Shown here: in pieces, positions 9,797-43,665 of the stretch
Numbering within the stretch: position 1 is the stretch's first letter
How the letters are laid out: each line of letters begins with the position of its first letter
NCBI RefSeq assembly: GCF_964213995.1
Contig: NC_135806.1
Span: forward strand, 139,438,001 to 139,502,000
Origin: Mustelus asterias
Lineage: Eukaryota
DNA length: 64,000 nt
Direction: 5' to 3'
Position numbers and translations under genes: made by a program
Notes under the pieces: model-generated
The model's input: only the letters and a program-made list of their open reading frames with translations
The model's database searches: none
What the model was told of the DNA's origin: nothing

Positions 9797-9854
9797 ATGA
9801 AGAGAATGCTGTGGATCGTGCTGTGTACACTCACAGTGCGCAGCTCAGCAGAAT
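9797..9854 (+). CDS. Exon 1: signal peptide [19 protein letters not shown]
   Basis: ATG at 9797, basic-hydrophobic-small residue pattern, donor GTATGT at 9855 in phase 1, unique non-repeat sequence. Confidence 0.75.
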
Positions 9855-15800: not shown

Positions 15801-18800
15801 ACCCACCACTGGATTAACATCGGACAAGGGATGAGGTCCTTACATTGACACTAATTGCTAATTAAGGGCTACATTTGTTGGCATGGTGGAAGGATTATTA
15901 TTCATGAAGCTTCTTAAGACACTAAGGGACAATTTAACATGGCCAACCCACCTAACCAGCACTTCAGAGCAGATTTAAATAGCGACTTTTTCTAATTGGA
16001 TATGAGTTGTGTTTAATTATATGTAAGGAGAGGTTTTCCCTGAACATCTTTAAAGACACATTTTCTGTAACTGTGCAATTGTGTTTGGAGATATTTGTTT
16101 GTAATGATTGACTCTGTAATTAAATATAAGACTAAGATTAGGATGAGGATCATCCTTCACTAACTGGCGCTCTGGAGTAGAATGAATTTCAAATGGGAAG
16201 GTACAAGACTGAGATTTACATCTTTGTGAGTGCCTGGGGCGCTGCCTGCTGTGACTTTAGTTAAAGTTAATTTATTAGTCGCAAATAAGGCTTCCATTAA
16301 CACTGAAATGAAGTTACTGTGAAATTCCCCTAGTCACCACACTCTGGCACCTGTTCAGGTCAGTGCACCTAACCAGCACGTCTTTCAGAATGTGGGAGGA
16401 AACCGGAGCATCCGTAGGAAACCCATGCAGACAACGTGCAGACTCCACACTAACAGTGACCCATTCCGGGAATCAAATCTAGGTCCCTGGCGCTGTGAGG
16501 CAGCAGTGCTAACCACTGTGCCACCCCATGAGGGGGGGGCAGTTGTAGACAGAGAGCAATGGGAGTATGTCTCTGTCTAGTACGGGCAGGCTGAGATGAC
16601 TTGTCCATGGTCTTAAGAACAAAGAACAGTACAGCACAGAAAACAGGCCCTTCGGCCCTCCAAGCCTGTGCCGCTCCTTGGTCCAACTAGACCAATCGTT
16701 TGTATCCCTCCATTCCCAGGCTGCTCATGTGACTATCCAGGTAAGTCTTAAACGATGTCAGCGTGCCTGCCTCCACCACCCTACTTGGCAGCGCATTCCA
16801 GGCCCCCACCACCCTCTGTGTAAAACTCTAATATCTGAGTTTTACTTCGCCCCTCTCACCTTGAGCCCGTGACCCCTCGTGAACGTCACTTCTGATCTGG
16901 GAAAAAGCTTCCCACCGTTCACCCTATCTATCCCCTTCATAATCTTGTACACCTCTATTAGATCTCCCCTCATTCTCCGTCTTTCCAGGGAGAACAACCC
17001 CAGTTTACCCAATCTCTCCTCATAGCTAAGACCCTCCATACCAGGCAACATCCTGGTAAACCTTCTCTGCACTCTCTCTAATGCCTCCACGTCCTTCTGG
17101 TAGTGCGGCGACCAGAACTGGACGCAGTACTCCAAATGTGGCCTAACCAGCGTTCTATACAGCTGCATCATCAGACTCCAGCTTTTATACTCTAGACCCC
17201 GTCTTATAAAGGCAAGCATACCATATGCCTTCTTCTCCACCTGTGTTGCCACCTTCAAGGATTTGTGGACGAGCACACCTAGGTCCCTCTGTGTTTCTAT
17301 ACTCCTGATGACTCTGCCAAAGCCGCCCCAAAAGCCACCAGCACAATCCATTTTCATCCCACCAGTCACATCTTCCATCAGACCCGGCAGGAAATCCTCT
17401 CCAATGGAGCAAGACCCATTTTCTCATCCTTTAACATCATCATCCTGATGTTTAAATCCCTCCATGTCCTTTTCTATCTCAGTGCTGTCACATCCTCCAG
17501 ACCAATTTCCCTCAAATCTCAGCACCTTTCCAACTTCACTTCCTGAAGGGAACATTGACTTCCACGTGTTTGTATAAATCTAGGTCGGTGTTGTCTGTCT
17601 TCAGGGATGTCACAGGGGAGATAAACATTGTAGAAACTACATTTAATAAAACTACACGATAGATTAATATCTGTTCTTTCAAATCCTCCCTCCCTCAGGT
17701 CAGAGCGATTCGCGGGCAGTGACTGGGGTGAAGGGAGATTCTGTCACTCTGTCCTGCACCTTCAATCCCCCTTGGCGTTCTCCCAGCTCCCTCACTGTCC
17801 TCTGGATGAAGAGGAATCTACGCAAAGATCCCACTGTTTTTAATTACACTCGTTCCCTCGGGGCTGGTTCTGGCTACACTGACCGAGTCACTGTGAATGA
17901 AGGAGATCGATATGAACTGATTGGAAACACAACCCAAGGAGACGCTTCCCTAAGGATGAGGAACCTGCAGCTGAACGACACCGATGATTACTTCTGTCAC
18001 GTACACATCAAGAATAGGAATCGGGAATGTGTGATTCAGGATGTGATGCAACTCCAGGTTGTTGGTAAGAAAACATCAATGTTTGTGATGTGGGGACATG
18101 GATAAAGCATGGTATAGCAGGTGGCACAGTGGTTAGCACTGCTGCCTCACAGTGCTAGCAATTTCCGGCTTGCATGTTGTGGAGTTTGCATGTTCTTCCT
18201 GTGTCGGTGTGGTTTACCATAAGACATAGGAGCAGAAGTAAGGCCATTCGGCCCATCGAGTCCACTCCTCCATTCAATCATGGTTGATTTCAACTCCATT
18301 TACCCGCTCTCTCCCCATAGCCCTTAATTCCTCGAGAAATCAAGAATTTATCAATTTCTGTCTTGAAGACGCTCAACGTCTCGGCCTCCACAGCCCTCTG
18401 TGGCAATGAATTCCACAGACCTACCACCCTCTGGCTGAAAAAATTTCTCCTCATCTCTGTTCTAAAGTGACTCCCTTTTATTCTAAGGCTGTGCCCCCGC
18501 GTCCTAGTCTCCCCTGCTAATGGAAACAACTTCCCTACGCCCATCCTATCTAAGCCGTTCATTATCTTGTAAGTTTCTATTAGATCTCCCCTCAACCTCC
18601 TAAACTCCAATGAATATAATCCCACGATCCTCAGACGTTCATCGTATGTCAGGCCTACCATTCCTGGGATCATCCGTGTGAATCTCCGCTGGACCCGCTC
18701 CAGTGCCAGTATGTCCTTCCTGAGGTGTGGGGCCCAAAATTGCTCACAGTACTCCAAATGGGGCCTAACCAGCGCTTTATAAAGCCTCAGAAGTACATCC

Positions 18801-24800: not shown

Positions 24801-27800
24801 ATAGTGCCTTGGTCAGAGGGTATGTTTGAAAGAGTTTAATAAAGGAGGAGATAGCTGAGGAGAGATCGTGAGGTTTAGGGAGGGAACTCGAGAGTATTAG
24901 GTCATCAATTGCTTTTTTTATTCATTCATGAGATGTGGAGCGGATCCTCCACCGGGTGTTAAAAATCCTGCATGCCTGATTTCCTTTTGATTTCTATGGA
25001 AATTCCATCTTACATTTCCGTATCTTTGACAGATCCACGAGGAGGAGGGATTCCTGTTAACAGTGCTGTTGATTCAGTGTCACAGCAAGCGGAGACAGGT
25101 ATAGAGACAACTCGCTTTGCATTGAGAACATTCTTCAAAGTACAAGCCATGAGGCGACATGGTGGCACAGTTGTTAGCACTGCTGCCTCACAGCGCCAGG
25201 GACTCGGGTTCAATTCTGGCCTCGGGTGACTGTGTGGAGTTTGCGTGTCTGCATGGGTTTCCTCCGGGTGCTCCGGTTTCCTCCCACAGTCCAAAAATGT
25301 GTGGGTTAGGTGGATTGTCCATGCAAAATTGGCCCTTAGTGTCAGGGGGACTAGCAGGATAAATACATGGGGTTACGGGGATAGGGCCTGGTTGGGATTG
25401 TTGTCAGTGCAAGCTCGATGGGCTAAATGGCCTCCTTCTGCACTGTAGGATTCTATGATTCTACAATAAGCTTAAAATAAAAATAGAAAATGCTAGAAAT
25501 ATCCAGCATTTATTGTCTTCCCTAGTTGCCCTACAGGAGGTGCTTTTTAGTTGTGACCACACAAATAATATCCTTCCATGGCATTCTTCTATGGGAAGTG
25601 GGGTCACTGGCAAGGTCACTGTTTGTTGACGCTTGTTCCTATTTTTTCTTTATTCATTTGTGGGACATGGGCGTCACTGGCTGGACAGCATTTGTTGCCC
25701 ATCCCTAGTTGCCCTTGAAACTGTGTGTCTTGCTCGGCCATTTCAGGGGGCAGTTAAGAGTCAACCACACTGCTGTGTCTCTGGAGCCACATGTAGGCCA
25801 GACCGGGTAAGGACAGCAGATTTCCTTCTCTAAAGGACAATGGTGAACCAGATAGGTTTTTAACAACAATTCAGGAGTTCCTGGCCACCATTACTGACAC
25901 TAGCTTTTTCATTTCAGATGTATTTAATTAACTAAATTCAAATTTTACAGAGGCCTTTGAACTCATACCTCCAGATCCTTCATCCCAAAGTTTGGATTGC
26001 TAGTCCAGTAACATAACCACCATGCTACTGTACACACAAAGGGCTACTGCCATGGATGACAATAGTGGAATGGTGAAAACTGGGGAGTGCAAGAGGACAG
26101 GCTTGGAGGAGCCCAGGGAGGGGGGAGAGCTGCAGGGGTGAAACATGGCTACAGTCCTGTTGAATAGTTGGGCCGTATGTTGTGCTCAAGGTGAGAGGGT
26201 TGGGAGGAGAATGAGGAGGATAATAAATGGGGTGGAGCAGATTGTCCAGCATGCTGTTACATAACCCCCCTGCCTGATCTTCATTTTATTGATCTCTATG
26301 GACATTCCGTCGATAGGAAGGAAGCACTAGAGGGGGTACAGGAGGATTCACCAGGATGTTGCTGGGATGGAGCATTTGAGCTATAAGGAGAGACTGGATA
26401 GGCTTGGATTGTTTTCTCTCGAGCCGAGATGCTGAGGGGGACATGATTGAGGTGTACAGGGTGATGAGAGTGAGTAGGAAGCAGCTGTTCCCCTTGGTTG
26501 AAGGGTCAGTCACGAGGGGGCATTGTTTTAGGGTGAGGGGCAGGAGATTCAGAGGGGATTTGAGATTCACTCAGAGGGTGGTGAGAACCTGGAATGCACT
26601 GCCTGGGAAGGTAGTGGAGACCAGAAACCTTACAACCTTTAAAAAGTATTGGGATGAGCACTTGACTCTGTGACATTTCTGTATTTTTGACAGATCCACA
26701 GGGAGTTGGAGGGATTCCTGTTTACAGTGCCATTGATCCAGTGTCACAGCAAGCGGAAACAGGTATAGAGACGACTCACTTTGCATTGAGAACATTCTTC
26801 AAAGTATAAACCATAAGCTTAAAATAAAAACAGAAAATGCGAGAAATATCCAACGGATCAGATAGCATCAACAGAGAGGGAGATTGAAGACAAGAGCTCA
26901 CATTTCAGCTCAAAGACCTTTCATCAGGATGGGGAAAAGTTACAGATGGAGCAGAGGTAGGGGGTGAGAACAAAATCATAGAATCCCACAGTGCAGAGGG
27001 AGGCCATTCAGCCCATCCAGTCTGCACCGACCACAATCTCACCCAGGCCCTATCCCCATAACTCCATGCATTTACCCTGGTTAGTCCCCCTGACACTAAG
27101 GGGCAATTTAGCCTGGCCAATCCACCTGACCCACACATCTTTGGGAGGAAAGGGAAAGCCTGTGATAGGTCATGGTTTTTAATTTATTCTTTCACAGGAC
27201 ATGGGCATCGCTGGCTAGACCAGCATTTATCGCCCATCTCTAATTGCCCCTTGAGGAGGAGGTGGTGAGCTGCCATGTTGAACTGCTTCAGTCTGTGCGT
27301 TGTAGGTACATCCACAGTGCAGTTAGGGAGGGAGTTCCAGGACTTTTACCCACAAACACCAGAGAGAAGTCAGACTGTGTCGCTGCACTTTATCTGCAAT
27401 GATAAGAAGGTGTAACTGGGGTGATCAGTAAGTTTGCGGACGACACAAAACTGGCAGGACTTGCAGATAGTGAGGAGCATTGTCAGAGGCTACAGAATGA
27501 TATAGGTAGGCTGGAAATTTGGGCAAAGAAATGGCAGATGGAGTTCAATCCTGATAAATGCGAAGTGATGCATTTTGGTAGAAATAATGTAGGGAGGAGC
27601 TATATGATAAATGGAAGAACCATAAAGGGTGTAGATACACAGAGGGACCTGGGTGTGCAAGTCCACAGATCCTTGAAGGTGACGTCACAGGTGGAGAAGG
27701 TGGTGAAGAAGGCATATGGCATGCTTGCCTTTATAGGACGGGGCATAGAGTATAAAAGTTGGGGTCTGATGTTGCAGATGTATAGAATGTTGGTTTGGCT

Positions 27801-30800
27801 GCATTTGGAATACTGCGTCCAGTTCTGGTCGCCACACTACCAGAAGGACGTGGAGGCTTTGGAGAGAGTACAGAGGAGGTTTACCAGGATGTTGCCTGAT
27901 ATGGAGGAGCTTAATTATGAGGAGAGATTGGGTAAACTGGGGTTGTTCTCCCTGGAAAGACGGAGGATGAGGGGAGACTTAATAGAGGTGTATAAAATTA
28001 TGAAAGGCATAGATAGGATGAACGGTGGGAAGCTTTTCCCCAGGTCGGTGGTGACGTTCACGAGGGGTCATAGGTTCAAGGTGAAGGGGGGGAGGTTTAA
28101 CACAGATATCAGAAGGACATATTTTACACAGAGGGTGGTGGGGGCCTGGAATGCGCTGCCAAGCAAGGTGGTGGAGGCAGACACACTGGGAATGTTTAAG
28201 ACTTATCTAGACAGCCACATGAACAGAGTGGGAATGGAGGGATACAAAAGAATGGTCTGGTTTGGATCAGGGAGTGGCACGGGCTTGGAGGGCCGAAGGG
28301 CCTGTTCCTGTGCTGTATTGTTCTTTGTTCTTTGTTTGATGCAAGTTAAAATAGCTCCTCTATGTGAGAACAGGAGGAGGCCATTCGGCCCCTCAAGGCC
28401 ATTCCACCTTTCACAGATGGTTGGTATTTTAATTCCATTTACGTGCCTTAGTTGCTGATCCATGGATATCTTTACCCAATAATATCGATTGACCTCAGTT
28501 TTCCCGGGATGTATAATGGGCAGACACTTTACCGATTTACTGTCCAAACCATGATGGCAAAAATACTGCCCAAATTCACTCAGTTGCTAATGCTTCACAT
28601 CCTTGATTGGTCCAAACTTGTTTCTTCTTCAGTTCCTGTCATTCTTTTTTATTTTAATCTATTCAGGGATGTGGGCGTCACCAGCTGGGCCAGCACTTAT
28701 TCCAGCCAGTTTTGTGGGGGAGACCAGAATGAGGGTGCATTGTGAGATTGTCAGTGACAAATCCAATCGGGAGATGTGAAGAAACTTCAGTAACAAAAGG
28801 TTTATAAGAGCCATGTTTGATCCTCAATCACAGATTGTAATTTACCACATTCTTCCCGTGGTTATTTCATCCTGGATTAGGGGGTCCTAAACTGGCCTAA
28901 CTTCACCCATATTTCTCCATGAATAAACATCCATCTTTTCTTCTATTTTTGTATCTTTGATAGATCTGCAAGAAGCTGGAAATGATCTAGTTTACGCTGT
29001 TATAAACTTTACAAGGTCGCAACAAGAGGAAGGTAAGGAGATAAATCTATCAGCAACTACAAAACAGAAAGCAAAGTGTGACAGCTCAGGGTGGGTGCCG
29101 GGGCCACGGTTCTTCATGATTAACATAAAATGTTTGGAAACTTGGGGAAATAAGTAGTGATGTCTTGAGGAGTATACGTATTGCAGAGAAGGAGGTGCTG
29201 GAAGCCTTAAAGTGCATCAAGGTAGATAAATCCCCAGGACCTGATGAGGTGTATCCCAGGACATTGTGGGAGGCTAGGGAGGAAATTGTGGGTCCCCGAG
29301 CAGAGATATTTGAATCATCGATTGTCACGGGTGAGGTTGCTGAAGATTAGAGAGTGGCAAATGTTGAGCCTTTGTTTAAAAAGGGCTGCAGGGAAAAGCC
29401 TGGGAACTACAGGCCAGTGAGCCTCACATCTGCGGTGGGTAAGTTGTTGGAAGGTATTTTGAGAGACAGGATCTACAGGCATTTAGAGAGGCAAGTGTTG
29501 ATTAGGGACAGTCAGCATGGCTTTGTGAGTGGAAAATCATGTCTCACAAATTTGATTGAGTTTTTTGAAGGGGTAACCAAGAAGGTAGATGAGGGCATGC
29601 AGTTGATATTGTCTAGATGGACTTTAGCAAGGCCTTTGACAAGGTACCGCATGGTAGGTTGTTGCATAAGGTTAAATCTCACGGGATCCAGGGTGAGGTA
29701 GCCAAATGGATCCAAAATTGGCTTGATGACAGAAGGTGGTTGTACAGGGTTGTTTTTCAAACTGGAGGCCTGTGCCTCAGGGATTGGTGCTGGGTCCACT
29801 ATTATTTGTCATTTATATTAATGATTTGGATTAGAATTTAGTAGGTATGGTTAGTAAGTTTGCAGATGACACCAAGATTGGTGCCATAGTGGGCAGTGAA
29901 GAAGATTATCTGGGATTACAATGGGATCTTGATCAATTGGGCCAGTGGGCTGATGAATGGCAAATGGAGTTTAATTTAGATAAATGCGAGGTGATGCATT
30001 TTGGTAGGTCGAACCAGGGGAGGATTTACTCAGTTAATGGTAGAGTGTTGGGAGAGTTATAGAACAAAGAGATCTAAGGGTACAGGTTCATAGCTCCTTA
30101 AAAGTGGAGTCACAAGTGGAGAGAGTGGTGAAGAAGGTATTTGGCATGCTTGGTTTCATTGGTCAGAACATTGAATACAGGAGTTGGGGCGTCTTGTTGA
30201 AGTTCTACAAGACATTGGTAAGGCCAAACTTGGAATACTGTGTACAGTTCTGGTCACCCTATTATAGAAAGGAAGTTATTAAACTAGAAAGAATGCAGGA
30301 ACGATTTACTAGGATGCTACCGGGACTTGATAGTTTGAGTTATAAGGAGAGGCTGGGTAGACTGGGACTTTTTTCCCTGGAGTGTGGGAAGCTTAGGGGT
30401 GATCTTATAGAGGTCTATAAAATAATGAGGTGCATGGATCAGCTAGAAAGTCAACATCTTTTCCCAAAGGTAGGGGAGTCTAAAACTAGAGGGCATAGGT
30501 TTAAGGTGAGAGGGGAGAGATACAAAAGGGTCCAGAGGGGCAATTTTTTCTCACACAGGCTGGTGAGTGTCTGGAACAAGCTGCCAGAGGTAGTAGTAGA
30601 GGCGGGTCTTTTAAAAAGTTTTTGGACATTTACATGGGTAAGAAGGGTGTAGAGGGATATGGGCCAAACGCGGGCAATTGGGACTAGCCTAGTGGTTAAA
30701 AAACTGGCATCATGGACAAGTTGGGCCGAAGGGCCTGTTTCCATGCTGTAAACCTCTATGATTCTATGATTGGGAAGGTAGTGGAGGCCGGAAATCTTAG

Positions 30801-33800
30801 AACCTTTAAAAAGTATTTGGAAGAGGGCTTGAAACATAATAACATTCAAGGATATGGGATAATTACTGGAAAATGGGATTAGCGTGCCTTTAGTGGTAGT
30901 TATTGTAGGTGCAGATTTGATGAGCCAAAGGGCCTTTTCTGCACTGTCTGACTCTTTGACATTCCGTTTGGTTACTCTGCGTCCGGCATGCAGGCACACA
31001 GATCACTAGATATAGTGACACAGATTAAATAGACCAGAACAGAAGCAAAGAAAGCACTTGGACACCTTTGGGAAGCCTGTGTCCATATTGGACCTTCATT
31101 AGCTCACAGCTAGAGTTACTGCGCACATCGTAAACAGTATATAGAGGCACTGGAGAATGACTAGAGTGAAACCAGAACTGAGAGGTCATTATCTATGAGG
31201 ACTGAACAGGCTTTGATTTGATTTGATTTATTATTGTCATATGTATTAACGTACAGTGAAAAGTATTGTTTCTTGCGCGCTATACAGACAAAGCATACCG
31301 TTCATAGAGAAGGAAAGGAGAGTGCAGAATGTAGTGTTACAGTCATAGTTAGAGTGTGGAGAAAGGTCAACTTAATGCAAGGTAGGTCCATTCAAAAGTC
31401 TGACAGCAGCAGGGAAGAAGCTGGGGTTCTTTAGAAGGAAGAAGACTAAGGGAGAGTGATAGAAAGTTTTAAGATTATCAAAGGGCTTGATTGGGTAGAC
31501 AGCGAGACCAAAGCTCGGGGCTGCAAATATAAAGTAATCACTAATAAATCCCGGAGGGAATTCAGGAGAAACTTCAGGACCTTAACCCCATTAACTTATC
31601 CTAATTTTACTGGGACAGTCTTCACCTGAACTGTGCTGGGGCCAGCGTTCTGGCAATTTGAATAACTAGGGAAATAGTGAAGGTTTTAAACTAAATAGTG
31701 GGGTGGGATTACGTGAGGGAAGATGTGGTAAATTAAAGGGAGAGGACAAGGCAGGAGTGCAAGGTAGCAATAAGGATAATGATACTCAGAGAACAAAGAA
31801 CAATACAGCACAGGAACAGGCCCTTCGGCCCTCCAAGCCTGCACCGACCATGTGTTCCTAACTAGACCATCCGTTTGTATCCCTCTATTCCCAGTCTGTT
31901 CATGAACAGAGTGTTCAAAATAAAGAGTTCACCAGCAGATATGTACAGAGTTTGCAAAAATAGTAAAACCACAGAACTAAAGGCTCTGTACGTGGATGTA
32001 AATGATGTGGAGATGCTGGCGTTGGACTGGGGTAAACACAGTAAGAAGTTTAACAACACCAGGTTAAAGTCCAACAGGTTTATTTGGTAGCAAAAGCCAC
32101 ACAAGCTTTCAAAGCTCTAAGCCCCTTCTTCAGGTGAGTGGGAATTCTGTTCACAAACAGAGCTTATAAAGACACAGACTCAATTTACATGAATAATGGT
32201 TGGAATGCGAATACTTACAACTAATCCAGTCTTTAAGAAACAAAACAATGGGAGTGGAGAGAGCATCAAGACAGGCTAAAAAGATGTGTATTGTCTCCAG
32301 ACAAGACAACCAGTGAAACTCTGCAGGTCCACGCAACTGTGGGAGTTACAAATAGTGTGACATGAACCCAATATCCCGGTTGAGGCTGTCCTTGTGTGTG
32401 CGGAACTTGGCTATCAGTTTCTGCTCAGCGACTCTGCGCTGTCGTGTGTCGCGAAGGCCGCCTTGGAGAACGCTTACCCGAATATCAGAGGCCGAATGCC
32501 CGTGACCGCTGAAGTGCTCCCCAACAGGAAGAGAACAGTCTTGCCTGGTGATTGTCGAGCGGTGTTCATTCATCCGTTGTCGCAGCGTCTGCATAGTTTC
32601 CCCAATGTACCATGCCTTGGGACATCCTTTCTTGCAGCGTATCAGGTAGACAACGTTGGCCGAGTTGCAAGAGTATGTACCGTGTACCTGGTGGATGGTG
32701 TTCTCACGTGAGATGATGGCATCTGTGTCGATGATCCGGCACGTCTTGCAGAGGTTGCTGTGGCGTCTTGGTCACTGTTCTCCTGAAGGCTGGGTAGTTT
32801 GCTGCGGACAATGGTCTGTTTGAGGTTGTGCGGTTGTTTGAAGGCAAGAAGTGGGGGTGTGGGGATGGCCTTGGCGAGATGTTCGTCTTCATCAATGACA
32901 TGTTGAAGGCTCCGGAGGAGATGCCGTAGCTTCTCCGCTCCGGGGAAGTACTGGACAACGAAGGGTACTCTGTCCACTGTGTCCCGTGTTTGTCTTCTGA
33001 GGAGGTCGGTGCGGTTTTTCGCTGTGGCGTGTTGGAACTGTTGATCAATGAGTCTCGCGCCATACCTGTTCTTATGAGGGCATCTTTCAGCGTCTGGAGG
33101 TGTCTGTTGCGATCCTCCTCATCCGAGCAGATCCTGTGTATACGGAGGGCTTGTCCGTAGGGGATGGCTTCTTTAACGTGTTTAGGGTGGAAGCTGGAGA
33201 AGTGGAGCATCGTGAGGTTATCCGTGGGCTTGCGGTACAGTGAGGTGCTGAGGTGACCGTCCTTAATGGAGATGCGCGTGTCCAAGAATGCAACCGATTC
33301 CGGAGAGTAGTCTATGGTGAGCCTGATGGTGGGATGGAACTTGTTGATGTCATCATAGAGTTGTTTCAGTGATTGTTCACCATGAGTCCAAAGGAAGAAA
33401 ATGTCATCGATGTATCTAGTGTATCGCATCGGTTGAAGGTCCCGTGCAGTGAAGAAGTCTTGTTCGAACCTGTGCATGAAGATGTTTGCATATTGAGGTG
33501 CAAATTTGGTCCCCATGGCTGTTCCGTGTGTCTGGATGAAGAACTGGTTGTTGAAGGTGAAGATATTGTGGTCCAGGATGAAGCGGATGAGATGTAAAAT
33601 TGCATCTGGAAACTGGCAGTTGTTGGCGCTGAGCACTGAGGCCGTTGCAGCAATGCCATCGTCATGGGGGATGCTGGTGTAGAGTGCCGAGACATCCATT
33701 GTGATGAGGAGCGCTCCTGGTTCAACTGCTCCATGTGTGCCAAGTTTCTGTAGGAAGTCCGTCGTGTCGCGACAAAAGCTGGGGGTTCTTTGTACAATGG

Positions 33801-36800
33801 GTTTCAGGATGCCCTCGACATAGCCGGAGAGGTTCTCGCACAGGGTCCCATTGCCCGATACGATGGGACGGCCGGGTGTGTTTGCCTTGTGTATCTTCGG
33901 GAGGCAGTAGAGATCTCCAACGCGGGGAGTACGTGGGATGAGAGCACGGAGGGTGTTCTGAAGGTCCGGATCAAAGGTCTTGATCAGAGTGTTGAGTTGA
34001 CGGGTGTGTTCTTTGGTCGGATCTGCAGGTAACTGTCTGTAGTGTTCCTCGTTGTTGAGTTGTCGGTACACTTCTTTGCAGTAATCCGTTCTGTTCAGTA
34101 TGATGATGGCCCCTCCTTTGTCTGCTGGTTTGATGACAATGTTGCGGTTGGTCTTGAGAGCGTGGATGGCGTTACGTTGTGCTTGGGTGATGTTCGGGGC
34201 TGTCTTGTGAGTGCGGCTGATGAATTTGGTGTTGACGCACCTCCTGACGGCTTGGGCATACATGTCAAGTCGAGGGCAGCGGCCTTCCGGAGGAGTCCAA
34301 TTCGACTCTTTCCTCTTCGGATGCACTGCGGATCTCTCTGTCGGCTGTTCCGGTTCATTGGCTGTCTCATTGTGTTCACTGTTGGCCTCTTGTGGTTTGT
34401 GGAAGAACTCCCTCAGCCTCATTCGCCTGATGAATTCCTCTGTGTCTGCTGCGAGACTGATGGGGTCTATTTTGGTGGTGGGGCAAAAATTAAGCCCTCG
34501 GCTGAGAACTTCGATTTCATCTGGTTGAAGTGTGTAGTCGGACAAGTTGACAATGGACCGCAAGCCCACGGATAACCTCACGATGCTCCACTTCTCCAGC
34601 TTCCACCCTAAACACGTTAAAGAAGCCATCCCCTACGGACAAGCCCTCCGTATACACAGGATCTGCTCGGATGAGGAGGATCGCAACAGACACCTCCAGA
34701 CGCTGAAAGATGCCCTCATAAGAACAGGTATGGCGCTAGACTCATTGATCAACAGTTCCAACGGGCCACAGCGAAAAACCGCACCGACCTCCTCAGAAGA
34801 CAAACACGGGACACAGTGGACAGAGTACCCTTCGTTGTCCAGTACTTCCCCGGAGCAGAGAAGCTACGGCATCTCCTCCGGAGCCTTCAACATGTCATTG
34901 ATGAAGACGAACATCTCGCCAAGGCCATCCCCACACCCCCACTTCTTGCCTTCAAACAACCGCACAACCTCAAACAGACCATTGTCCGCAGCAAACTACC
35001 CAGCCTTCAGGAGAACAGTGACCAAGACACCACACAACCCTGCCACAGCAACCTCTGCAAGACGTGCCAGATCATCGACACAGATGCCATCATCTCACGT
35101 GAGAACACCATCCACCAGGTACACGGTACATACTCTTGCAACTCGGCCAACGTTGTCTACCTGATACGCTGCAAGAAAGGATGTCCCGAGGCATGGTACA
35201 TTGGGGAAACTATGCAGACGCTGCGACAACGGATGAATGAACACCGCTCGACAATCACCAGGCAAGACTGTTCTCTTCCTGTTGGGGAGCACTTCAGCGG
35301 TCACGGGCATTCGGCCTCTGATATTCGGGTAAGCGTTCTCCAAGGCGGCCTTCGCGACACACGACAGCGCAGAGTCGCTGAGCAGAAACTGATAGCCAAG
35401 TTCCGCACACACAAGGACAGCCTCAACCGGGATATTGGGTTCATGTCACACTATTTGTAACTCCCACAGTTGCGTGGACCTGCAGGGTTTCACTGGCTGT
35501 CTTGTCTGGAGACAATGCACATCTTTTTAGCCTGTCTTGATGCTCTCTCCACTCCCATTGTTTTGTTTCTTAAAGACTTGATTAGTTGTAAGTATTCGCA
35601 TTCCAACCATTATTCATGTAAATTGAGTCTGTGTCTTTATAAGCTCTGTTTGTGAACAGAATTCCCACTCACCTGAAGAAGGGGCTTAGAGCTTTGAAAG
35701 CTTGTGTGGCTTTTGCTACCAAATAAGCCTGTTGGACTTTAACCTGGTGTTGTTAAACTTCTTACTGTGTGGATGTAAATGGCATTCGTAACAAAACAGA
35801 TGAATTGTCAGCTGAAATAGAAATAAATATAGATGATCTGATGGCCATTACAGAGCTGAGGGTGGGACCTGAATATTCAAGGTTCCTTTAGGAAGGGCAG
35901 GAGGTAGTAACATTTGGAGAGGTAGCTCTGTTAATTAACGATGACAGTACAACACTCAGAGATTACCTGAGTTTGTAGACCCCATAACAATAACTACACT
36001 GTAGGATAGGGTATACAGGAAGAAGGATTGGGGGCTTTTAAGAAAGGAGCAGCAATAATCACGTGTGATTTTAATATAAGCATAGACTGGGTGAATCAGA
36101 TTGAATCTAATTGAAAAGTTCAATCAAACAAATAGGAAATGGTAGCTTGGAAAAGTGCTTTTGGGACAATTTCTTAGAGCAGCACATTTTACAATCAACC
36201 GGACAGCAGGGTATTCTGGTAATGTGCAATGAGGTGGGATTAATTAATAACTTCATCGAAAAAAAGCTTTTAGGTAGAAGTGATCATAACATGATTGAAT
36301 TTCACATTCAATTTGAGGGAGAAAAAATTGGATCGAGTGCTAGACTTGAATAAACACAATTGCAAGGATGTGAGATGCAGCTGAATAACGTAAACTGGGA
36401 AATTAGGTTCAAGGGAAGGTCAGTACAGATGTAGATGCAGACATTTAAGGAGATATTTTATAACACTAAGCAAAGTTACATTCCGCTAGGGGGCACAGGT
36501 TTAAGGTGTGAGGGGCAAGGTTTAAAGGAGATGTATGAGGCAAGTGTTTTACACAGAGGGTGGTAGGTGCCTGGAACTCGCTGCCGGGGGAGGGAGTGGA
36601 AGCAGATACGGTAGTGACTTTTAAGGGGCGAGTTGACAAGTACATGAATAGGATGGGAATAGAGGGATATGGTCCCCGGAAGGGTAGGGAGTTTTAGTTC
36701 AGTCGGGCAGTATGGTCAGTGCAGGCTTGGAGGGCCGAAGGGCCTGTTCCTGTGCTGTAATTTTCTTTGTTCTTTGTTCTAAGGAAGTTAAAGATAGTAT

Positions 36801-39800
36801 CAACTGAAAGAAAAAACGTTCAATTTCACCAAGATCAGTGGCATGTCAGAAAATTGAACAGAATATAAAAAATAACTAAAAAAAGGAGAAATTAGAGGAT
36901 GAGCGAACGATGGCTAGAAGTATAAAAGAGATGGCAAATATTCGAAAAGCGAAAAGTATAACTAAAGTAAGCATGTATTCTCGAGAGATTGAGATTGGGG
37001 AATTAATAATGGGAAATGAGGAAACATTGAACAGACATTTTGGGTGAAATTTTCCGGCAGCATGGATAGGCACATGGAGCACACCAGGATGATAGGGAGT
37101 GGGAGAGCTTGATCTTGGTTTCAGATAAAGCTCGGCACAACATCGTGGGCCGAAGGGCCTGTTCTGTGCTGTACTGTTCTATGTTCTAGCAGAGGCAGCA
37201 TACCATTGGCTGGGGGCAGGACCTTCTGGTCCCCCTGAAGTCCATGGCGTTTTGTATCTCTCGCCCACCTCACCACTGGGGAACATGCTGCAGGTGCCCG
37301 TGGGGAAGTAAGTTGTGAAGAGGACATAAGGGAGGGGCAATTCTTCCAGCCTGCTCCACTGCTCTCGCAGCGCAGCGGGGTGGACATTTGCCGAGGTCGT
37401 TCCACAGGCACCCCACTGGCCACCCGGGGCACCACCCAGACGAAGATTTGTAGCATCATCAGCGGCACGGATCTGGTTTCAATATTTATAGTTGAATTTG
37501 CATCTGATTAGCGGGCCCGGGACTGAAATCACTGGGCCCGCTAGCAGCCTCCCCCACTCCCCGCCAGGAGTGGTTCACTCCAGCTGGGTTAACAACAGAT
37601 CTCCACTCGTGAGGAACAATACTTTTCAATGAATACCAATACATGTGACAATAATAAATCAAATCAAAACAGGTGGCCGACCCCGCTGGAGGGAACAGAG
37701 GCCATTGAGCCCCGCCCCAGGAGGTCAGGGGTGAGAGGGGGTGCCCCATTGAGGCCCCCCCTCCCTCCCCCCGGGTGAATCCAGTCTACGCTGTAGGACA
37801 TTTCCTCACATCGTTAAAATCGGGACACCCAGCAGCACCATTCAGCGAGATGACCCCAGCAGAAGTACTGGTTCCTTCACTCCTCCAGACCAGGGCTCTC
37901 AGCCAGCAGGGAGTCAGACAGCACGGCGGTGTTCGAGGGCGTGGTACACGTGTGTGTCGATTATCATGACACAGTTGGGCACCATTTTCAATGAATGATG
38001 ATTGGCCAGGTGCTCCATACATGTTAGGAGTGTTGTTTGTTCTGGATATAGTTTTAAAGTTTGCTGGCTTGCACGCTGCGAGGAGATCGATGGCAGGCCC
38101 AGTAGATTTCCAGTCATTTCAAGAGGGTTCACAAAACTCACAGGAGTGTCAAGGGTTATGGGAAACAGGTCGGAAAGTGGAGTTAAACTCACAATCCAAT
38201 CAATCAGTCTCCTTATCTGAGGAAGGATGTCCTTGCTATCAAGGGAGCACAGCGAAGGTTTACCAGGCTGATTCCTGGAGTGGCAGGTCTGTCATACGAG
38301 GAGAGACTAAGTCGGTTAGGATCATATTCACTGGATTTAGAAGAGTGAGAGGGGATCTCATAGAAACTTATAAAATTCTAACAGGGTTAGACAGGGCAGA
38401 TTCAGAAAGAATGTTCCCGATGGTGGGGGGAGTCCAGAACTAGGGGTCATAGTTTGAGGATGAGGGATAAACCTTTTAGAACTGAGGTGAGGAGAAATTT
38501 CTTCACCCAGAGGGCGGTGAATGTGGGGAATTCACTACCACTGAATGTAGTTGAGTCCAAAGCATGTGATTCCAAGAAGGAGTTAGATATAGCTCTTGTG
38601 GCTAAAGGGAGGAAGGGTGTATCAGGTTACTGAGTTGGATGATCAGCCATGAAGATAATGAATGGCGGAGCAGTCTTGAAGGACCAAATGACCGACTCCT
38701 GCTCCTAATTTCTGTATTTCCATGATCTTATTAAATGGCAGAGTGGGTTTGACGGGCTGAATGGCCTACTCTGACCGCTAACCCTTGTGTCCTTATCTCT
38801 ATTATCTCTATTCTTGTCTCAGTGTCAAACTGTGTTTGATTAGCTCTCCTGTGAAGTGCCTTGGGATATTTCACTGTGTTGTGGGCGCTAGGTAAATGCG
38901 AGTCGTTGTTGGATTTATTGCTTTGCTATTCAGTTGTGTAAAAGGTTTGCAGATATCGATGACAGAGGGAAATAACTGATTGTGTCCTTTCCAGGGCCAC
39001 AGAAACCTGAAGAGGAGCCTGAGTACAGTAATGTTAACATTCAAAACCCTCACCAAGAAGAGACAGGTAAGGAATAGCAACTTAAAGATAGCCGTTAACT
39101 CAGATTCTTACTCTAACTCAGAGTTAAGCTTCTCACCTCACTATGACTGGCAAAACAGAGGGTTATGTATCCTTTAGAACAATGACTGTGAATCGGGCTT
39201 CTCATTGTGCCCCTGCACACCCCAGTGCTGGGGGTGGTTAATGAGGGGGTGTTAGGGGGTGGTGAGTGTCAGGGGTCAGCGATGGGAGAAGTCCTGGTGA
39301 AATTACTGGGATCAAGTGCAGCAGGACATTTTCTCAACCTCTCAAGGTTTTCATAGAATCCCTACATTTTTGTAGAATGAGGCCATTCGGCCCATCGAGC
39401 CTGCACCGACCACAATTCCACCCAGGCCCTATCCCCGCAACCCCATTTACCTTAATAGTCCCCCTGACACTAAGGGGCAATTTAGCATGGCAAATCAACC
39501 TAACCTGCACGTCTTTCGGACAGTGGGAGGAAACCGGAGCACCCGGAGGAAACACACACAGATACGGGGAGAACGTGCAAACTCCACGCAGACAGTGACC
39601 CAAGCCGGGAATCGAACCTAGGTCCCTGGCGCTGTGAGGCAGCAGTGCTAACCCACTGTGCCACCCGTCACTAGTCAAAAGGCAGCAGTTCTGTCGCGCT
39701 GTGTTAAATTGTGACCGGTTTATCAGACAGGGACTTTGTTTGGGCTGATCTCCAGCCTCTCAGTTATCAGCTCAGGGGGGGCAGGTTATCAGTAACAGAG

Positions 39801-42800
39801 GATACTTGGCTTCCTGATTGGATTTCTTCCAGGAAATAATACTTTTTGGATGTAGTATATGAATAATGTGAGACATGGGCCTTAAACATCCGTCCTGTTT
39901 CCAGGCTGGGATTCTCCGATGCCAGTGTGAGTGAATGGAGTTTTGGCTGGAATCTCTGTAAATTTTTCCCGTTTTTCCTAAGGCGAGCGGCAGAATCTCC
40001 TGATCAGGCCTGATGGATGTAGAATAGTGCCCCTATAGTCTCTGGTGACTGCCCAGATAGGGGTCTGTTCCAGGGAAAAATGAGCCTTCTCCATCCCTCC
40101 AAGTTGTTATTTAAAAATAGGTGAAAAAAAAAGTTGCCTCGTGTGTCTCTCGATTGGGGGAAGAGAATCAAGAATAATGGTCGGAATTTTACTATCCCGC
40201 CCGTCACGGGGAAATGGAGTGGGCGAGGGGCGGATAATGGAAAGGTCCGTTGAACTTGGACAGGGTTTTACGGTTTCAGGACGAGCGAGGTTTACAAGGG
40301 GAGCGCTTCAACAACTCATTAATATAGATAATCATACAGCACAGAAAAGGCCCTTCGGCCCATCGAGCCTGCACTGACAAAATCTGCCACTAAGGCCACA
40401 CTAATCCCATTTTCCAGCTAACCCCTTGTCCCATACCCTTGACGTATGTCAGATCGGAACATTGAAATTAGGAGTGGGAGTAGGAAATTCAGCCCTTCGA
40501 GCCTGCTCTGCAATTTAACATGATCTTGGGCAATCTTATCCTGGTCTCAACTCCACTTTCCTGCCTGCTCCCCATAGCCCTTTATCCCGCTTTTCATCAG
40601 AAACATATCTATCTCTCAAATCTGTTGATTGATTCTGTCTCCACTGCACTCTGGGGCAATGAATTCCAGAGACACTCAACCGCCTGAGAGAAGTAGTTCC
40701 TCCTCATCTCAGCTATGAACCTAACTCCTCTCACTCTATGGGCAGGAATTTTCCGGCCACGCTTGCCCTGAAATCGGAAAATCCCACCCGTGGTCAACGG
40801 ACCTTTCCATCGTCTACCCCTCGACCGCTACAGTGCCCATGGAAGGTGAATCGGGGAAATTCGCCCCAATATCTATGACCTCTCGTTCTGGACTGTTCTA
40901 CAAGGGGGAACATCTGTTCAACATCCACCTTATCAATCCCCTTTAGCATTTTATATACCTCAATCGAATCCCCCCCCCTCATTCGTACAACAGCCCTTTC
41001 ATCCCTGGAATCAATCTGGTGAACCTCCTCTGAATGGCCTCCAATGCCACCACATCCTTGTTCTGTCAGTCCCAACTTCGCACCTTCCACATCATAGAAA
41101 CATAGAAGATAGGAGCAGGAGGAGGCTATTCGGCCCTTCGAGCCTGCTCCGCCATTCATCACGATCATGACTGATCATCCAACTCAATAGCCTAATCCTG
41201 CTTTCTCCCCATAACCTTTGATCCCATTCGCCCCAAGTGCTGTATCCAGCCACCTCTTGAATGCATTTAATATTTTGGCATCAACTCCTTCCTGTGGTAA
41301 TGAATTCCACAGGCTCACCACTCTTTGGGTGAAGAAATTTCTCCTCATGTCTGTCCTAAATGGTCTACCCTGAATCCTCAGACTGTGACCCCTGGTTCTG
41401 GACTCCCCCCCCCCCCCCCCCCCCACCATCGGGAATATCCTCCCTGCATCTACCCTGTCTAGTCCTGTTAGAATTTTATCAATCTCTATGAGATCCCTCC
41501 TCATTCGTCTGAACACCAGCGAAAACAATCCTAACCTAGTCAACTTCTTCTCATACATCAGTCCCACCATCCCCGGAATCAGCCTGGTAAACCTTCGCTG
41601 CACTCCCTCGAGAGCAAGAGCATCCTTCCTCAGAAAAGGAGACCAAAACTGTACACAATACTCTAGGTGTGGTCTCACCAAGGCCCTGTATAATTGCAAC
41701 AACACATCCCTGCTCCTGTACTCGAAACCTCTCGCAATGAAGGCCAACATACCATTTGCCTTCTTTACCGCCTGCTGCACCTGCATGCTTACCTTCAGTG
41801 ACTGGTGCACAAGGACACCCAGATCCCGCTGCACACTCCCCTCTCCCAATTTACAGCCATTCAGGTAGTAATCTGCCTTCTTGTTTTTGCTTCCAAAGTG
41901 AATAACCTCTCATTTATCCAAATTATACTGCATCTGCCATTGATTAGCCCACTCACCCAACCTGTCCAGATCATTCTGAAGGATCTCTGCATCCTCGTCA
42001 CAGTTCACCCTCCCACCCAACTTGGTATCATCTGCAAACTTTGAGATGTTACATTTTGTTCCCTCATCCAAATCATTAATATATATTGTGAATAGCTGGG
42101 GTCCCAGCACCGATCCCTGTGGCACCCCACTAGTTACTGCCTGCCAGTTTGAAAAGCACCCATTAATTCATAATCTTTGTTTCCTCTCTGCCAAACAATT
42201 TTCTGTCCATCTCAATACACATCCTCCAATCACATGTACTTTAATCTTGCTCGATAATTTTTAATGCGGGACTTTGTCAAACACTTTCTGAAAGTCCAAA
42301 TATATCACATTGACTGGTTCCCCCTTGTCAACTCTACTAGTTACATCTTCAAAGAATTCCAACAGATTTGTCAAGCATGATTTCCCCTTCATAAATCCAT
42401 GCTGACTCTGTCTGATCCTGCCACTGCTTTCTAAATGCTCCGCTATAAAGTCCTTGATAATGGATTCGAGAATTTTCCCCACTACCGATGTTAAGCTTAC
42501 TGGTCTATAATTCCCTGTTTTCTCTCTACCTCCCTTTTTGAATATTGGAGTGACATTAGCTATCCTCCAATCTGCAGGGACTGTTCCAGAGTCTATAGAA
42601 CCCTGGAAGATGACCACCTATGCATCCACTATTTCTAGAGCCACTTCCTTAACTACTATGGGATATAGATTATCAGGTCGGGGGATTTATCCACCTTCAA
42701 TCCCATCAGTTTTCCTAGCACCATTTCTCTACTAATATTTATTTCCCTCGGGTCTTCCCTCTCACTAAAATCTTGCATTCTCCAACATTTCTGGCATCTG

Positions 42801-43665
42801 ATTTGCATCCTCCTTTGTGAAGACAGAACCAAAGTATATATTCAGTTGCTCGGCCATTTCTTTGTCCCCTATTATACATTCCCCCGTTTCTGTCTGTAGG
42901 GGACCTACATTTGTCTTCACCAACCTCTTCCTCTTCACGTATCTACAGAAACTCTTAGTGTCAGTCTTTATGTTCCCTGCAAGCTTAATTTCATGCTGTA
43001 TTTTCCCCTTAATCAATCCCTTGGTCCTTCTTTGCTGAATCGTGTCTGCCAATAACGTAGAGCCACCCATAAACAATTATCCAACAATTTGAATTTGCTT
43101 TCTCTCTGCAATAAATCAATTTAAGAACAGTATGATGACAATGGGCAGTCCTCATTTACAATTACAATCATTGGTAAGGCATTCTGACAGGACACAGCTC
43201 ATAACCAATTAGATTCTGAAAGATTCCCTCTCAGTTGCTCTGTTACAAAGCCGCAGAAAGTCAGGCACTTCTGATTGGAGTGGCACGGTGGCACAGTGGT
43301 TTGCACTGCTGCCTCACACCGCCAGGGACCCGGGTTCCATTCCCAGCCTTGGGTCACTGTCTGTGTGGAGTCTGCACGTTCTCCGCGTGTCTGCATGGGT
43401 TTCCTCCGGGTGCTCCGGTTTCCTCCCATGGTCCAAAAGACGTGCAGTTAGGTGGATTGGTCATGTTAAACTCTCCCTCAGTGTACCCGAACAGGCGCCA
43501 GAGTGTGGCGACCAGGGGATTTTCACAGTAACTTCACTGTAGTGTTAATGTAAGCCTACTCGTGACACTGATAAATAAACTTTAAACAATTCAATGTAAA
43601 AAAAAAACCCTGAAACCAAATTTTCTTTTCCAGCTGTAATTTATGCGACTGTCGCAAACCAGTGA
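9797..43665 (+). CDS. SIGLEC15-like: Siglec-15-like Ig-superfamily receptor, spliced gene: join(9797..9854,13824..14213,17699..18064,23655..24029,25033..25098,26694..26762,28964..29032,38995..39066,43634..43665), about 498 aa; SP-IgV-IgV-IgC2-TM-ITIM tail
   Basis: All exons have AG/GT boundaries in phase 1 and join into one open frame (1497 nt). The first V domain carries Siglec-15 hallmarks (WSM..EV, C.FTHP...Y.G, LGNPR.N, Y.CRVEF, YE..HGV). Probably a paralogue rather than the true orthologue. Confidence 0.85.
9975..10400. repeat. Degenerate AT-rich tandem repeat of about 12 bp (tgaatattatac), interrupted by a tRNA-headed SINE (about 10035-10252)
   Basis: Repeated gaatattatact units flank tagctcagttgg...gggttcaattccc. 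Confidence 0.6.
10545..13125. mobile_element. Cluster of degraded CR1 fragments and SINEs (V-SINEs 11463-11768 +, 11938-12225 -)
   Basis: CR1 3' motifs and V-SINE cores. Confidence 0.7.
13824..14213 (+). CDS. Exon 2: Siglec-15-type V-set Ig domain with the sialic-acid-binding Arg (CRVEF, CGC 14147-14149)
   Basis: Acceptor ttgtgttttccag, donor GTGAGG; translation [14 protein letters not shown]...[14 protein letters not shown]...LGNPRKN...YSCRVEF...YELEHGV. Confidence 0.92.
16615..17312 (-). mobile_element. CR1 LINE 3' fragment
   Basis: [15 protein letters not shown]...[14 protein letters not shown]. Confidence 0.88.
17699..18064 (+). CDS. Exon 3: second V-set Ig domain (no essential Arg: YFCHVH)
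   Basis: Acceptor cctccctccctcag, donor GTAAGA; GDSVTLSC...W...[21 protein letters not shown]-set motifs. Confidence 0.9.
18217..19399 (-). mobile_element. Young CR1 LINE 3' fragment (open 370-aa RT C-terminus) inserted into a V-SINE
   Basis: [13 protein letters not shown]...FADDTK...; SINE halves at 18115-18215 and 19400-19460. Confidence 0.9.
19460..20548. mobile_element. GC-rich non-autonomous element with internal palindromes and poly-G tracts
   Basis: Ends gggagaatcgcccc; related pieces at 1-125, 37380-37770, 44170-45650 and 55078-56742. Confidence 0.55.
20865..21508 (-). mobile_element. CR1 LINE 3' fragment
   Basis: [16 protein letters not shown]...WNSLP. Confidence 0.88.
22021..22360 (-). 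mobile_element. HE1-like V-SINE, tail type A (CR1-like)
   Basis: tRNA head, V-domain, tail gggccgaatggcctccttctgcactgtagggtttctat; near-identical to 45995-46340. Confidence 0.88.
22747..23480 (-). mobile_element. CR1 LINE 3' fragment
   Basis: [11 protein letters not shown]...[13 protein letters not shown]. Confidence 0.82.
23655..24029 (+). CDS. Exon 4: C2-set Ig domain plus transmembrane helix
   Basis: Acceptor tttccttccccaag (in-frame alternative AG gives a start at 23661), donor GTGAGC; C...PPANITW...[12 protein letters not shown], then hydrophobic [25 protein letters not shown]. Confidence 0.9.
25033..25098 (+). CDS. Exon 5 (candidate): cytoplasmic repeat exon [22 protein letters not shown], Tyr replaced by Asn
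   Basis: tatctttgacag acceptor, GTATAG donor, 66 nt, phase 1-1; paralogue of the exon at 26694. Confidence 0.55.
25153..25463 (+). mobile_element. HE1-like V-SINE inserted in the intron after duplicated exon 5
   Basis: Absent from the paralogous intron after 26762. Confidence 0.85.
25645..26030 (-). mobile_element. Second shark SINE family (possibly SacSINE1-like); further copies at about 60470-60690(+) and 62325-62590(-)
   Basis: Shared gaaggaaatctgc.gtccttacc.ggtctggcctacatgtg core and agggatgggcaa.aaatgctg tail. Confidence 0.55.
26694..26762 (+). CDS. Exon 6: cytoplasmic repeat exon [23 protein letters not shown] (ITIM-like)
   Basis: tatttttgacag acceptor, GTATAG donor, 69 nt, phase 1-1. 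Confidence 0.65.
26821..26970 (-). mobile_element. Penelope-type pLTR remnant with a degenerate hammerhead (about 26897-26930)
   Basis: Minus strand CTGATGA-AAGGTC-TTT-GAGCT-GAAATGT next to the aaaacagaaaatgc terminus. Confidence 0.5.
27400..28337 (+). mobile_element. CR1 LINE 3' fragment
   Basis: ISKFADDTK...; (ttctttg)n tail. Confidence 0.9.
28964..29032 (+). CDS. Exon 7: cytoplasmic ITIM exon [23 protein letters not shown]
   Basis: Long pyrimidine tract plus TAG acceptor, GTAAGG donor, 69 nt, LVYAVI motif. Confidence 0.8.
29130..30770 (+). mobile_element. CR1 LINE, frameshifted RT region
   Basis: [26 protein letters not shown] and FADDTK in separate frames. Confidence 0.88.
31212..31430 (-). 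mobile_element. L2-type LINE 3' end with (aaatc)n tail; a + copy lies at 37612-37668
   Basis: tttgatttgatttgatttattattgtca terminus. Confidence 0.6.
32097..32138 (-). ncRNA. Minimal hammerhead ribozyme motif (mirror copy)
   Basis: Reverse complement of 35668-35709. Confidence 0.7.
35668..35709 (+). ncRNA. Minimal type-I hammerhead ribozyme motif in the pLTR
   Basis: CAC-CUGAAGA-AGGGGC-UUAGA-GCUUU-GAAA-GC-UU-GUG: conserved core, stem II and palindromic AGCU stem III. Confidence 0.7.
38205..38720 (+). mobile_element. CR1 LINE 3' fragment
   Basis: [14 protein letters not shown] and CR1 3' UTR. Confidence 0.8.
38995..39066 (+). CDS. Exon 8: cytoplasmic tyrosine exon [24 protein letters not shown]
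   Basis: tgtcctttccag acceptor, GTAAGG donor, 72 nt, phase 1-1, YSNV motif. Confidence 0.78.
39351..39667 (-). mobile_element. HE1-like V-SINE (tail A); further copies at 44490-44832(+), 45995-46340(-), 58427-58730(+), 61305-61648(-)
   Basis: tRNA head, V-domain and CR1-like tail. Confidence 0.85.
40740..40866. mobile_element. Short MITE-like element with imperfect TIRs (GGGCAGGAATTTTCC / GGGGAAATTCGCCC) inserted in a CR1
   Basis: Interrupts CR1 text; relatives at about 40179-40290 and 57470-57600. Confidence 0.55.
41091..43040 (-). mobile_element. CR1 LINE RT region, degraded
   Basis: [36 protein letters not shown]. Confidence 0.9.
43634..43665 (+). CDS. Exon 9: terminal ITIM exon [10 protein letters not shown]-stop
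   Basis: ttttcttttccag acceptor, canonical VIYATV ITIM, TGA at 43663-43665. Confidence 0.78.

Follow-up and report, generated by a model that had tools for sequence, protein, structure and literature searches.

Siglec-15 has been treated as a single activating receptor, and a study of teleosts proposed that fish lack canonical inhibitory Siglecs, with sharks unmentioned in the available part of its text (PMC7226832). In primates, paired Siglecs have ectodomains homogenised by repeated gene conversion in each lineage (PMC6288428, PMC4042635, PMC5701461), and the converted stretch spans the first two domains, including the one that binds sialic acid (PMC4042635, PMC5701461). PECAM-1 has two ITIMs (PMC5314882) and an alternatively spliced tail, in which loss of exon 14 abolishes SHP-2 binding (PMC5664058). 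These accounts follow the accessible portions of the cited papers.

The window analysed here is a stretch of 64,000 nucleotides of the Mustelus asterias genome (contig NC_135806.1, positions 139,438,001 to 139,502,000 of the forward strand). It most probably holds an intact Siglec-15-like V-V-C2 receptor gene with a tail of four duplicate exons, likely inhibitory, with a likely activating partner 104 kb away on the opposite strand (rough probability 0.72). The pairing is the more valuable result; the tail observation from which the work started is real, was partly misdescribed, and is of a known sort, that of spliceable multi-exon ITIM tails as in PECAM-1.

Splice-joined reading of the window DNA gives a single open frame of 498 amino acids from nine exons with canonical AG/GT splice ends (Table 1). 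The product has the order V-V-C2-TM, with an uncharged transmembrane (TM) segment and two canonical ITIMs, and its N-terminus, encoded by exon 1, resembles by eye that of the Heptranchias protein P0016. Among the proteins listed by a search of the collection, none carries the V1 domain of the window gene. Intron 7 contains, at 32036-35770, an element whose 1.2-kb inverted arms are 97.9% identical. It has a minus-strand reverse-transcriptase frame of 642 amino acids and, in one arm, a GIY-YIG frame, and we take it to be a Penelope-like retrotransposon. A perfect 118-bp tandem duplication lies within a repeat at 48558-48793.

Table 1. Features of the window gene and of its duplicated tail unit (positions in the window).
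Feature	Position	Strand	Evidence or remark
Exon 1, signal peptide	9797..9854	+	ATG frame, GT donor, in-frame join
Exon 2, V1, Siglec-15-like V-set	13824..14213	+	Pfam V-set; PDB 7zoz match
Exon 3, V2, V-set	17699..18064	+	Pfam; DNA 96.0% identical to Lys-type paralog, tract 17675-18076
Exon 4, C2-type Ig domain and uncharged transmembrane segment	23655..24029	+	Pfam; paralog alignment
Exon 5, tail module 1, 66 nt, without Tyr (Asn instead)	25033..25098	+	
Exon 6, tail module 2, 69 nt, PVYSAI non-canonical, near copy of exon 5	26694..26762	+	
Exon 7, tail module 3, 69 nt, canonical ITIM LVYAVI	28964..29032	+	
Exon 8, tail module 4, 72 nt, PEYSNV non-canonical	38995..39066	+	
Exon 9, last exon (coding part), with canonical ITIM VIYATV and stop codon	43634..43665	+	
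Copy 1 of duplicated unit, around exon 5	24935..25505	+	downstream dispersed repeat ~25150-25462 interrupts
Copy 2 of duplicated unit, around exon 6	26232..26852	+	upstream repeat fragment ~26320-26665 interrupts

The best solved relative of V1 is Siglec-15 (PDB 7zoz, E 2.2e-16; chain and protein numbering differ by an offset of 19, inferred from the construct start). V1 keeps the residues aligned to human Siglec-15 W44, C64, C142, R143, Y154 and E155, the essential F-strand Arg (R143) standing beside C142 in the aligned motif CRVEF; the C95-C104 disulfide pair is absent, V1 having two Cys only. The roles of these residues are those described in the available text of PMC10264397. The window gene is classed as Siglec-15-like and not as Siglec-15 because it combines V-V-C2, an uncharged TM and two ITIMs, while Siglec-15 is V-C2, with a TM Lys and ITIM-free. 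It lies on G000:C6 within a cluster of Siglec-15-like V exons, where the best 8 of 25 genome matches of a lungfish protein named Siglec-15 fall. Urea-transporter genes, which neighbour SIGLEC15 in human, gave 10 of 10 matches on C1 and not on C6, where the receptor cluster is, although this is one synteny marker only.

The earlier note had described the tail as four internal exons of 66, 69, 69 and 72 nt, all of phase 1-1, built around a common tyrosine motif. The four exons are present (Table 1), with AG/GT ends and an open frame. The common motif did not hold, the codon that is TAC (Tyr) in exon 6 being AAC (Asn) in exon 5, and the phase is no peculiarity of the tail, being 1-1 in every internal exon, Ig exons 2-4 included. 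The GTATAG donors of exons 5 and 6, which had been called weak, match 6 of 9 consensus positions, as many as donors 1-4, in a crude count that uses no splice-strength model. Scored with the ITIM signature used in the accessible part of PMC7226832, the four tail tyrosines include only two that fit, in exons 7 and 9.

That the tail grew through duplication of exons is supported by the DNA of exons 5, 6 and 7 and by the varying number of modules in the predicted tails of relatives. Exons 5 and 6 with their flanks are identical at 128 of 145 positions (88%), with a score of 221 where 300 shuffles gave at most 36. None of 300 shuffles reaches the score of exon 7 against either of them, and exon 7 is, judged on its DNA, their older relative. 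Exon 8 is borderline: its scores against exons 5, 6 and 7 are reached by 0, 4 and 0 of 300 shuffles, and where it passes it does so by 1-4 points over the shuffle maximum. DNA similarity of exon 9 to the other tail exons is absent (55-169 of 300 shuffles reach the score). The sequence comparison indicates that the four tail exons derive from one module, with the DNA similarity of exon 8 borderline. It offers a tidy example of how exon duplication changes the number of signalling motifs, but in a kind of tail already known.

Exons 5 and 6 had also been put down as recent duplicates together with their flanking intron. The flanks are indeed included: homology of the unit reaches about 100 nt upstream and about 90 nt downstream, skipping one insertion per copy. 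'Recent' needs qualification, as the far-upstream block is identical at only 59 of 80 positions, compared with 159 of 178 in the core around the exons (Fisher p 0.0025); an older duplication whose core was later converted therefore fits, although a plain recent duplication with uneven divergence may account for the same pattern. The final 33-nt block of the core belongs to a dispersed repeat. An assembly artefact was considered and rejected, given the 12% divergence and the differing insertions of the two copies. A profile of the four exons matched only those four in 582 kb of the cluster, and the exon 6 stretch, searched against the genome DNA, returned exons 5 and 6 and two short matches. 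A crude splice filter for additional tail modules gave six candidates, three of them real exons and three in repeats, and missed exon 6.

In relatives, tails are known from predicted proteins, with exon borders inferred from peptide repeats and not from DNA. The tail-region protein search matched only Heptranchias and Heterodontus (three matches), and the predicted tails differ in the number of the same module. In Heptranchias, the tail of isoform X1 carries six tyrosines, and two of its modules, of 23 aa each, are identical; isoform X2, a computational model, differs by the exact loss of one 24-aa module at the position of exon 6, and the module dropped carries a non-canonical Tyr. The Heterodontus tail has three modules and two tyrosines, those of Mobula birostris and Narcine have five tyrosines each, Callorhinchus has 20-aa repeats of its own, and the models of Pristis and Hemitrygon, which may be incomplete, have zero, so that counts run from 0 to 6. 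In all six species whose models have tail tyrosines, the first one stands at an offset of 33-41 residues (in Narcine counted from the V2 end, the isoform being without C2-TM). The first module is Tyr-free in three ways, by Asn in the window gene, His in Heptranchias and a deletion in Heterodontus. We read exon 5 as a spacer kept Tyr-free, which probably holds the first Tyr 33-41 residues off the membrane. Downstream of it, module number seems to evolve freely, and gain and loss of modules there would set the number of tyrosines between species.

The reading originally offered for M. asterias, that every tail exon is a tyrosine cassette and that regulated skipping adjusts the count and the spacing of the ITIMs offered to tandem-SH2 phosphatases, is possible but doubtful. 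Skipping of any tail exon keeps the frame, which is arithmetically true, all four exons being symmetric, but the Ig exons have the identical phase. The donors of exons 5 and 6 depart from consensus at +4 to +6 and the pyrimidine tract of exon 6 is 0.63, against which their donor match counts equal those of exons 1-4. Precedent exists in PECAM-1 (PMC5664058, in its accessible part) and in the Heptranchias isoform predicted to omit the module at the exon 6 position. On the other side, exon 5 has no Tyr and a canonical ITIM is absent from exons 5, 6 and 8, so that skipping any of these three leaves both canonical ITIMs. Module skipping is thus possible, predicted in one ortholog, and here it would mostly alter spacing and non-canonical tyrosines. 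A lack of isoform or copy-number variation had been named as evidence against tuning; at the level of the family such variation is found, in the predicted Heptranchias isoform and in the module counts. Contigs of runs from related organisms, whose RNA status is guessed, cover exon 4: two end at 23931, which is also the end of the tract shared with the paralog, and two others continue to 23976 and 24030, into the uncharged TM. Among the entries listed for exon 4, none was an RNA data set. No splice joint was found among the joints listed, with contigs of 4 of 15 runs, swamped by repeats, on 23640-29100. On the exon 6 stretch there are contigs from four runs, from other organisms and about 90% alike, none of them over the exon, which at such a distance says little.

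Under neutral turnover, drift would govern the duplication, conversion and decay of modules in an unstructured tail that tolerates such change, exon 5 would be a decaying copy and only the ITIM exons would be of importance; we judge this reading improbable. It would agree with the differences between exons 5 and 6, which are mostly amino-acid changing (four residue changes and a one-codon indel versus two silent codons) and about as dense in the exon as in its flanks, and with the wide range of tyrosine counts in relatives' models. Against drift speak the in-frame state of that indel and the persistence of both splice ends, the C-terminal motif of the module kept in Heptranchias and Heterodontus (12-15 identical residues), and the Tyr-free first module reached by different routes.

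What the earlier account of the locus missed is an activating-type partner gene. It lies on the opposite strand, in convergent orientation, at G000:C6 ~139,585,400-139,600,400, 103,763 bases from the stop of the window gene, and encodes P0004, a V-V-C2 protein that has a Lys in its TM and a tail just a few residues long. The partner's V2 and C2-TM exons match P0004 letter for letter. Two linked genes are therefore present, one with ITIMs and the other with a charged TM and a short tail. Their V2 DNA agrees at 96.0% over 402 nt and their C2 DNA at 95.9% over 290 nt (23642 to 23931), both tracts with sharp ends and the sequence of exon 4 unrelated beyond 23931; in the introns nothing is alignable past ~24 nt. 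Homogenisation of the ectodomain thus includes V2 and C2 and not V1, where the DNA is 74.9% identical over 287 nt and the partners are 49% identical. Within V2 (17701-18063), 15 of 16 base changes alter an amino acid and one is silent (p 0.077), and in C2 the ratio is 7 amino-acid-changing to 4 silent. Positive selection in V2 was considered on these counts and not adopted. The 13 residue differences in V2 lie mostly in the predicted BC, CC' and FG loops, as placed by motif landmarks.

Other members of the cluster were observed as well. A third gene lies between the pair (G000:C6:139509213-139518626, minus strand; L003, L016), with a single V that has the Arg, a C2 and an uncharged TM, 65-71% identical to the Carcharodon protein P0065; its tail exons were looked for and not found. 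A Siglec-15-like gene at G000:C6:140.75-140.80 Mb (L064-L069), which matches P0075, is V-V-TM; it has the Arg and a Cys pair like C95-C104, and the repeated Tyr motifs of its multi-exon tail are unrelated to the module of the window gene. More copies of this V-V type occupy G000:C6:139.74-139.85 Mb (L046-L056), some with stops or frame breaks, which suggests birth-and-death in the cluster. Duplication extends to ectodomain exons, as relatives (P0012, P0042, P0014, P0053) have internally duplicated V domains: an extra V2 in Heptranchias X1/X2, several extra V in Amblyraja and, in lungfish, a long array of V.

Among cartilaginous fishes, all seven within-species pairs of an uncharged and a Lys-type gene are 73-93% identical in V2 and 66-99% in C2, that of Scyliorhinus canicula sharing only 66% in C2. 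The window gene compared with same-type genes of four other species gives 53-68% for V2 and 55-74% for C2, and between species the TM regions of Lys-type genes agree at 86-89%. In a V2+C2 tree built from 24 rows (23 of 51 proteins plus the window gene, leaving out redundant isoforms and partial or unclassifiable models) the two types were joined by species or genus in six starred forks, and a clade of uncharged-TM genes was rejected (p-AU 4e-79); skates were the exception, each type forming a subclade of its own. On 39 columns the TM tree divides the genes by type (94/100), a result partly circular because type labels were set by the TM Lys. Five rows labelled inhibitory (Pristis, Scyliorhinus canicula and three of Rhinoraja) have an uncharged TM and no tail Tyr in their models. 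Since V2+C2 group by lineage and the TM by type, repeated gene conversion is indicated, and we infer that V2 and C2 of the two genes have been kept alike by conversion limited to exons, lineage by lineage. Such domain swapping appears to have taken place in each shark, ray and chimaera lineage compared, with the predicted sugar-binding site mostly spared.

That site is in V1, where the F-G strands largely group with their own type (94/95) and one Callorhinchus row of Lys type joins the uncharged group. Of 11 elasmobranch V1 domains of Lys type, 10 have Leu at the place of the essential Arg, which is present in four of five of the uncharged type. Exceptions to this pattern are the Lys-type partner in M. 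asterias, which keeps the Arg, Mobula birostris with Gln, and Callorhinchus, with Cys in the uncharged gene and Arg in one Lys gene. Strands A-E give a by-eye hint of partial conversion, and a type clade was unrejected by the tree (p-AU 0.14). The V1 of the window gene (13826-14212) is on a long branch (0.62), and its first 100 nt are identical to the partner's at 88 positions, perhaps from an older partial conversion.

Another reading, with neither a common ligand nor pairing, is passive conversion of neighbouring paralogs or exon shuffling of recent date. Conversion would need homology alone, and the reading would suit both the divergence of V1, the predicted glycan-binding domain, and the excess of amino-acid changes in V2, as if selection separates the two genes. 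It is unlikely given that inhibitory-type and Lys-type genes are found paired again and again, in chimaera, sharks and sawfish, that the shared tracts end abruptly at the edges of exons and immediately before the TM, and that the pattern is as reported for proven pairs in the available text of PMC5701461.

For the preferred reading of two paired receptors, the steps proposed are those of Siglec biology as given in the accessible part of PMC6288428. V1 would bind self sialic acid through its Arg, the phosphorylated ITIMs of exons 7 and 9 would recruit SHP-1/2, and the partner would signal through DAP12/DAP10 by way of its TM Lys. More speculatively, conversion may maintain a shared non-glycan surface gripped by microbes, the partner acting as a counter-trap that ignores self sialic acid. 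Extended to the whole group, a tentative scheme that we hold less probable than the pairing itself is of an inverted decoy: a Siglec-15-derived pair would predate the chimaera-shark split, with a brake that reads self sialic acid through a private V1 site and an accelerator, usually Arg-less, whose V2/C2 are continually re-copied from the brake and which fires only on microbial proteins gripping the brake away from the sugar site. The strength of the brake would be set by adding, losing or skipping tyrosine modules behind a protected Tyr-free spacer exon. The spared glycan site makes the counter-trap idea testable, as a ligand driving conversion should bind V2/C2 independently of sialic acid. 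In the literature searched, with most subscription journals outside its scope, none of the titles and abstract openings listed describes this shark receptor pair.

Compared with known systems, the window gene shares with human Siglec-15 a V1 with the B-F disulfide, a Cys beside the essential Arg and equivalents of W44, Y154 and E155, and the partner carries a Lys in its TM, as is typical for Siglec-15 (PMC7226832, available text). It differs in its extra V2 and missing C95-C104 pair, in an uncharged TM and ITIM tail where Siglec-15 is described as ITIM-free and activating, and in belonging to a multi-gene cluster where Siglec-15 is a single gene. With PECAM-1 the likeness is an ITIM tail from many short exons, frame-preserving in the shark gene. 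The PECAM-1 ectodomain is unrelated, however, and in the shark the modules are plainly copies of one unit, with numbers that differ from species to species; the counterpart of PECAM-1 alternative splicing is a predicted ortholog isoform only. Closest in arrangement are primate Siglec-5/14 and Siglec-11/16, in which an inhibitory ITIM gene likewise stands beside a DAP12-type gene. These primate genes are CD33-related, whereas an ITIM-bearing Siglec-15-like gene with a Lys-type gene would extend the logic of paired Siglecs far past primates and to a different Siglec branch. Whereas conversion in primates takes in the domain that binds sialic acid, in the shark arrangement it is in V2 and C2, the F-G strands of V1 are type-specific and most Lys-type copies are without the Arg; this pattern extends over all the cartilaginous fishes that were sampled.
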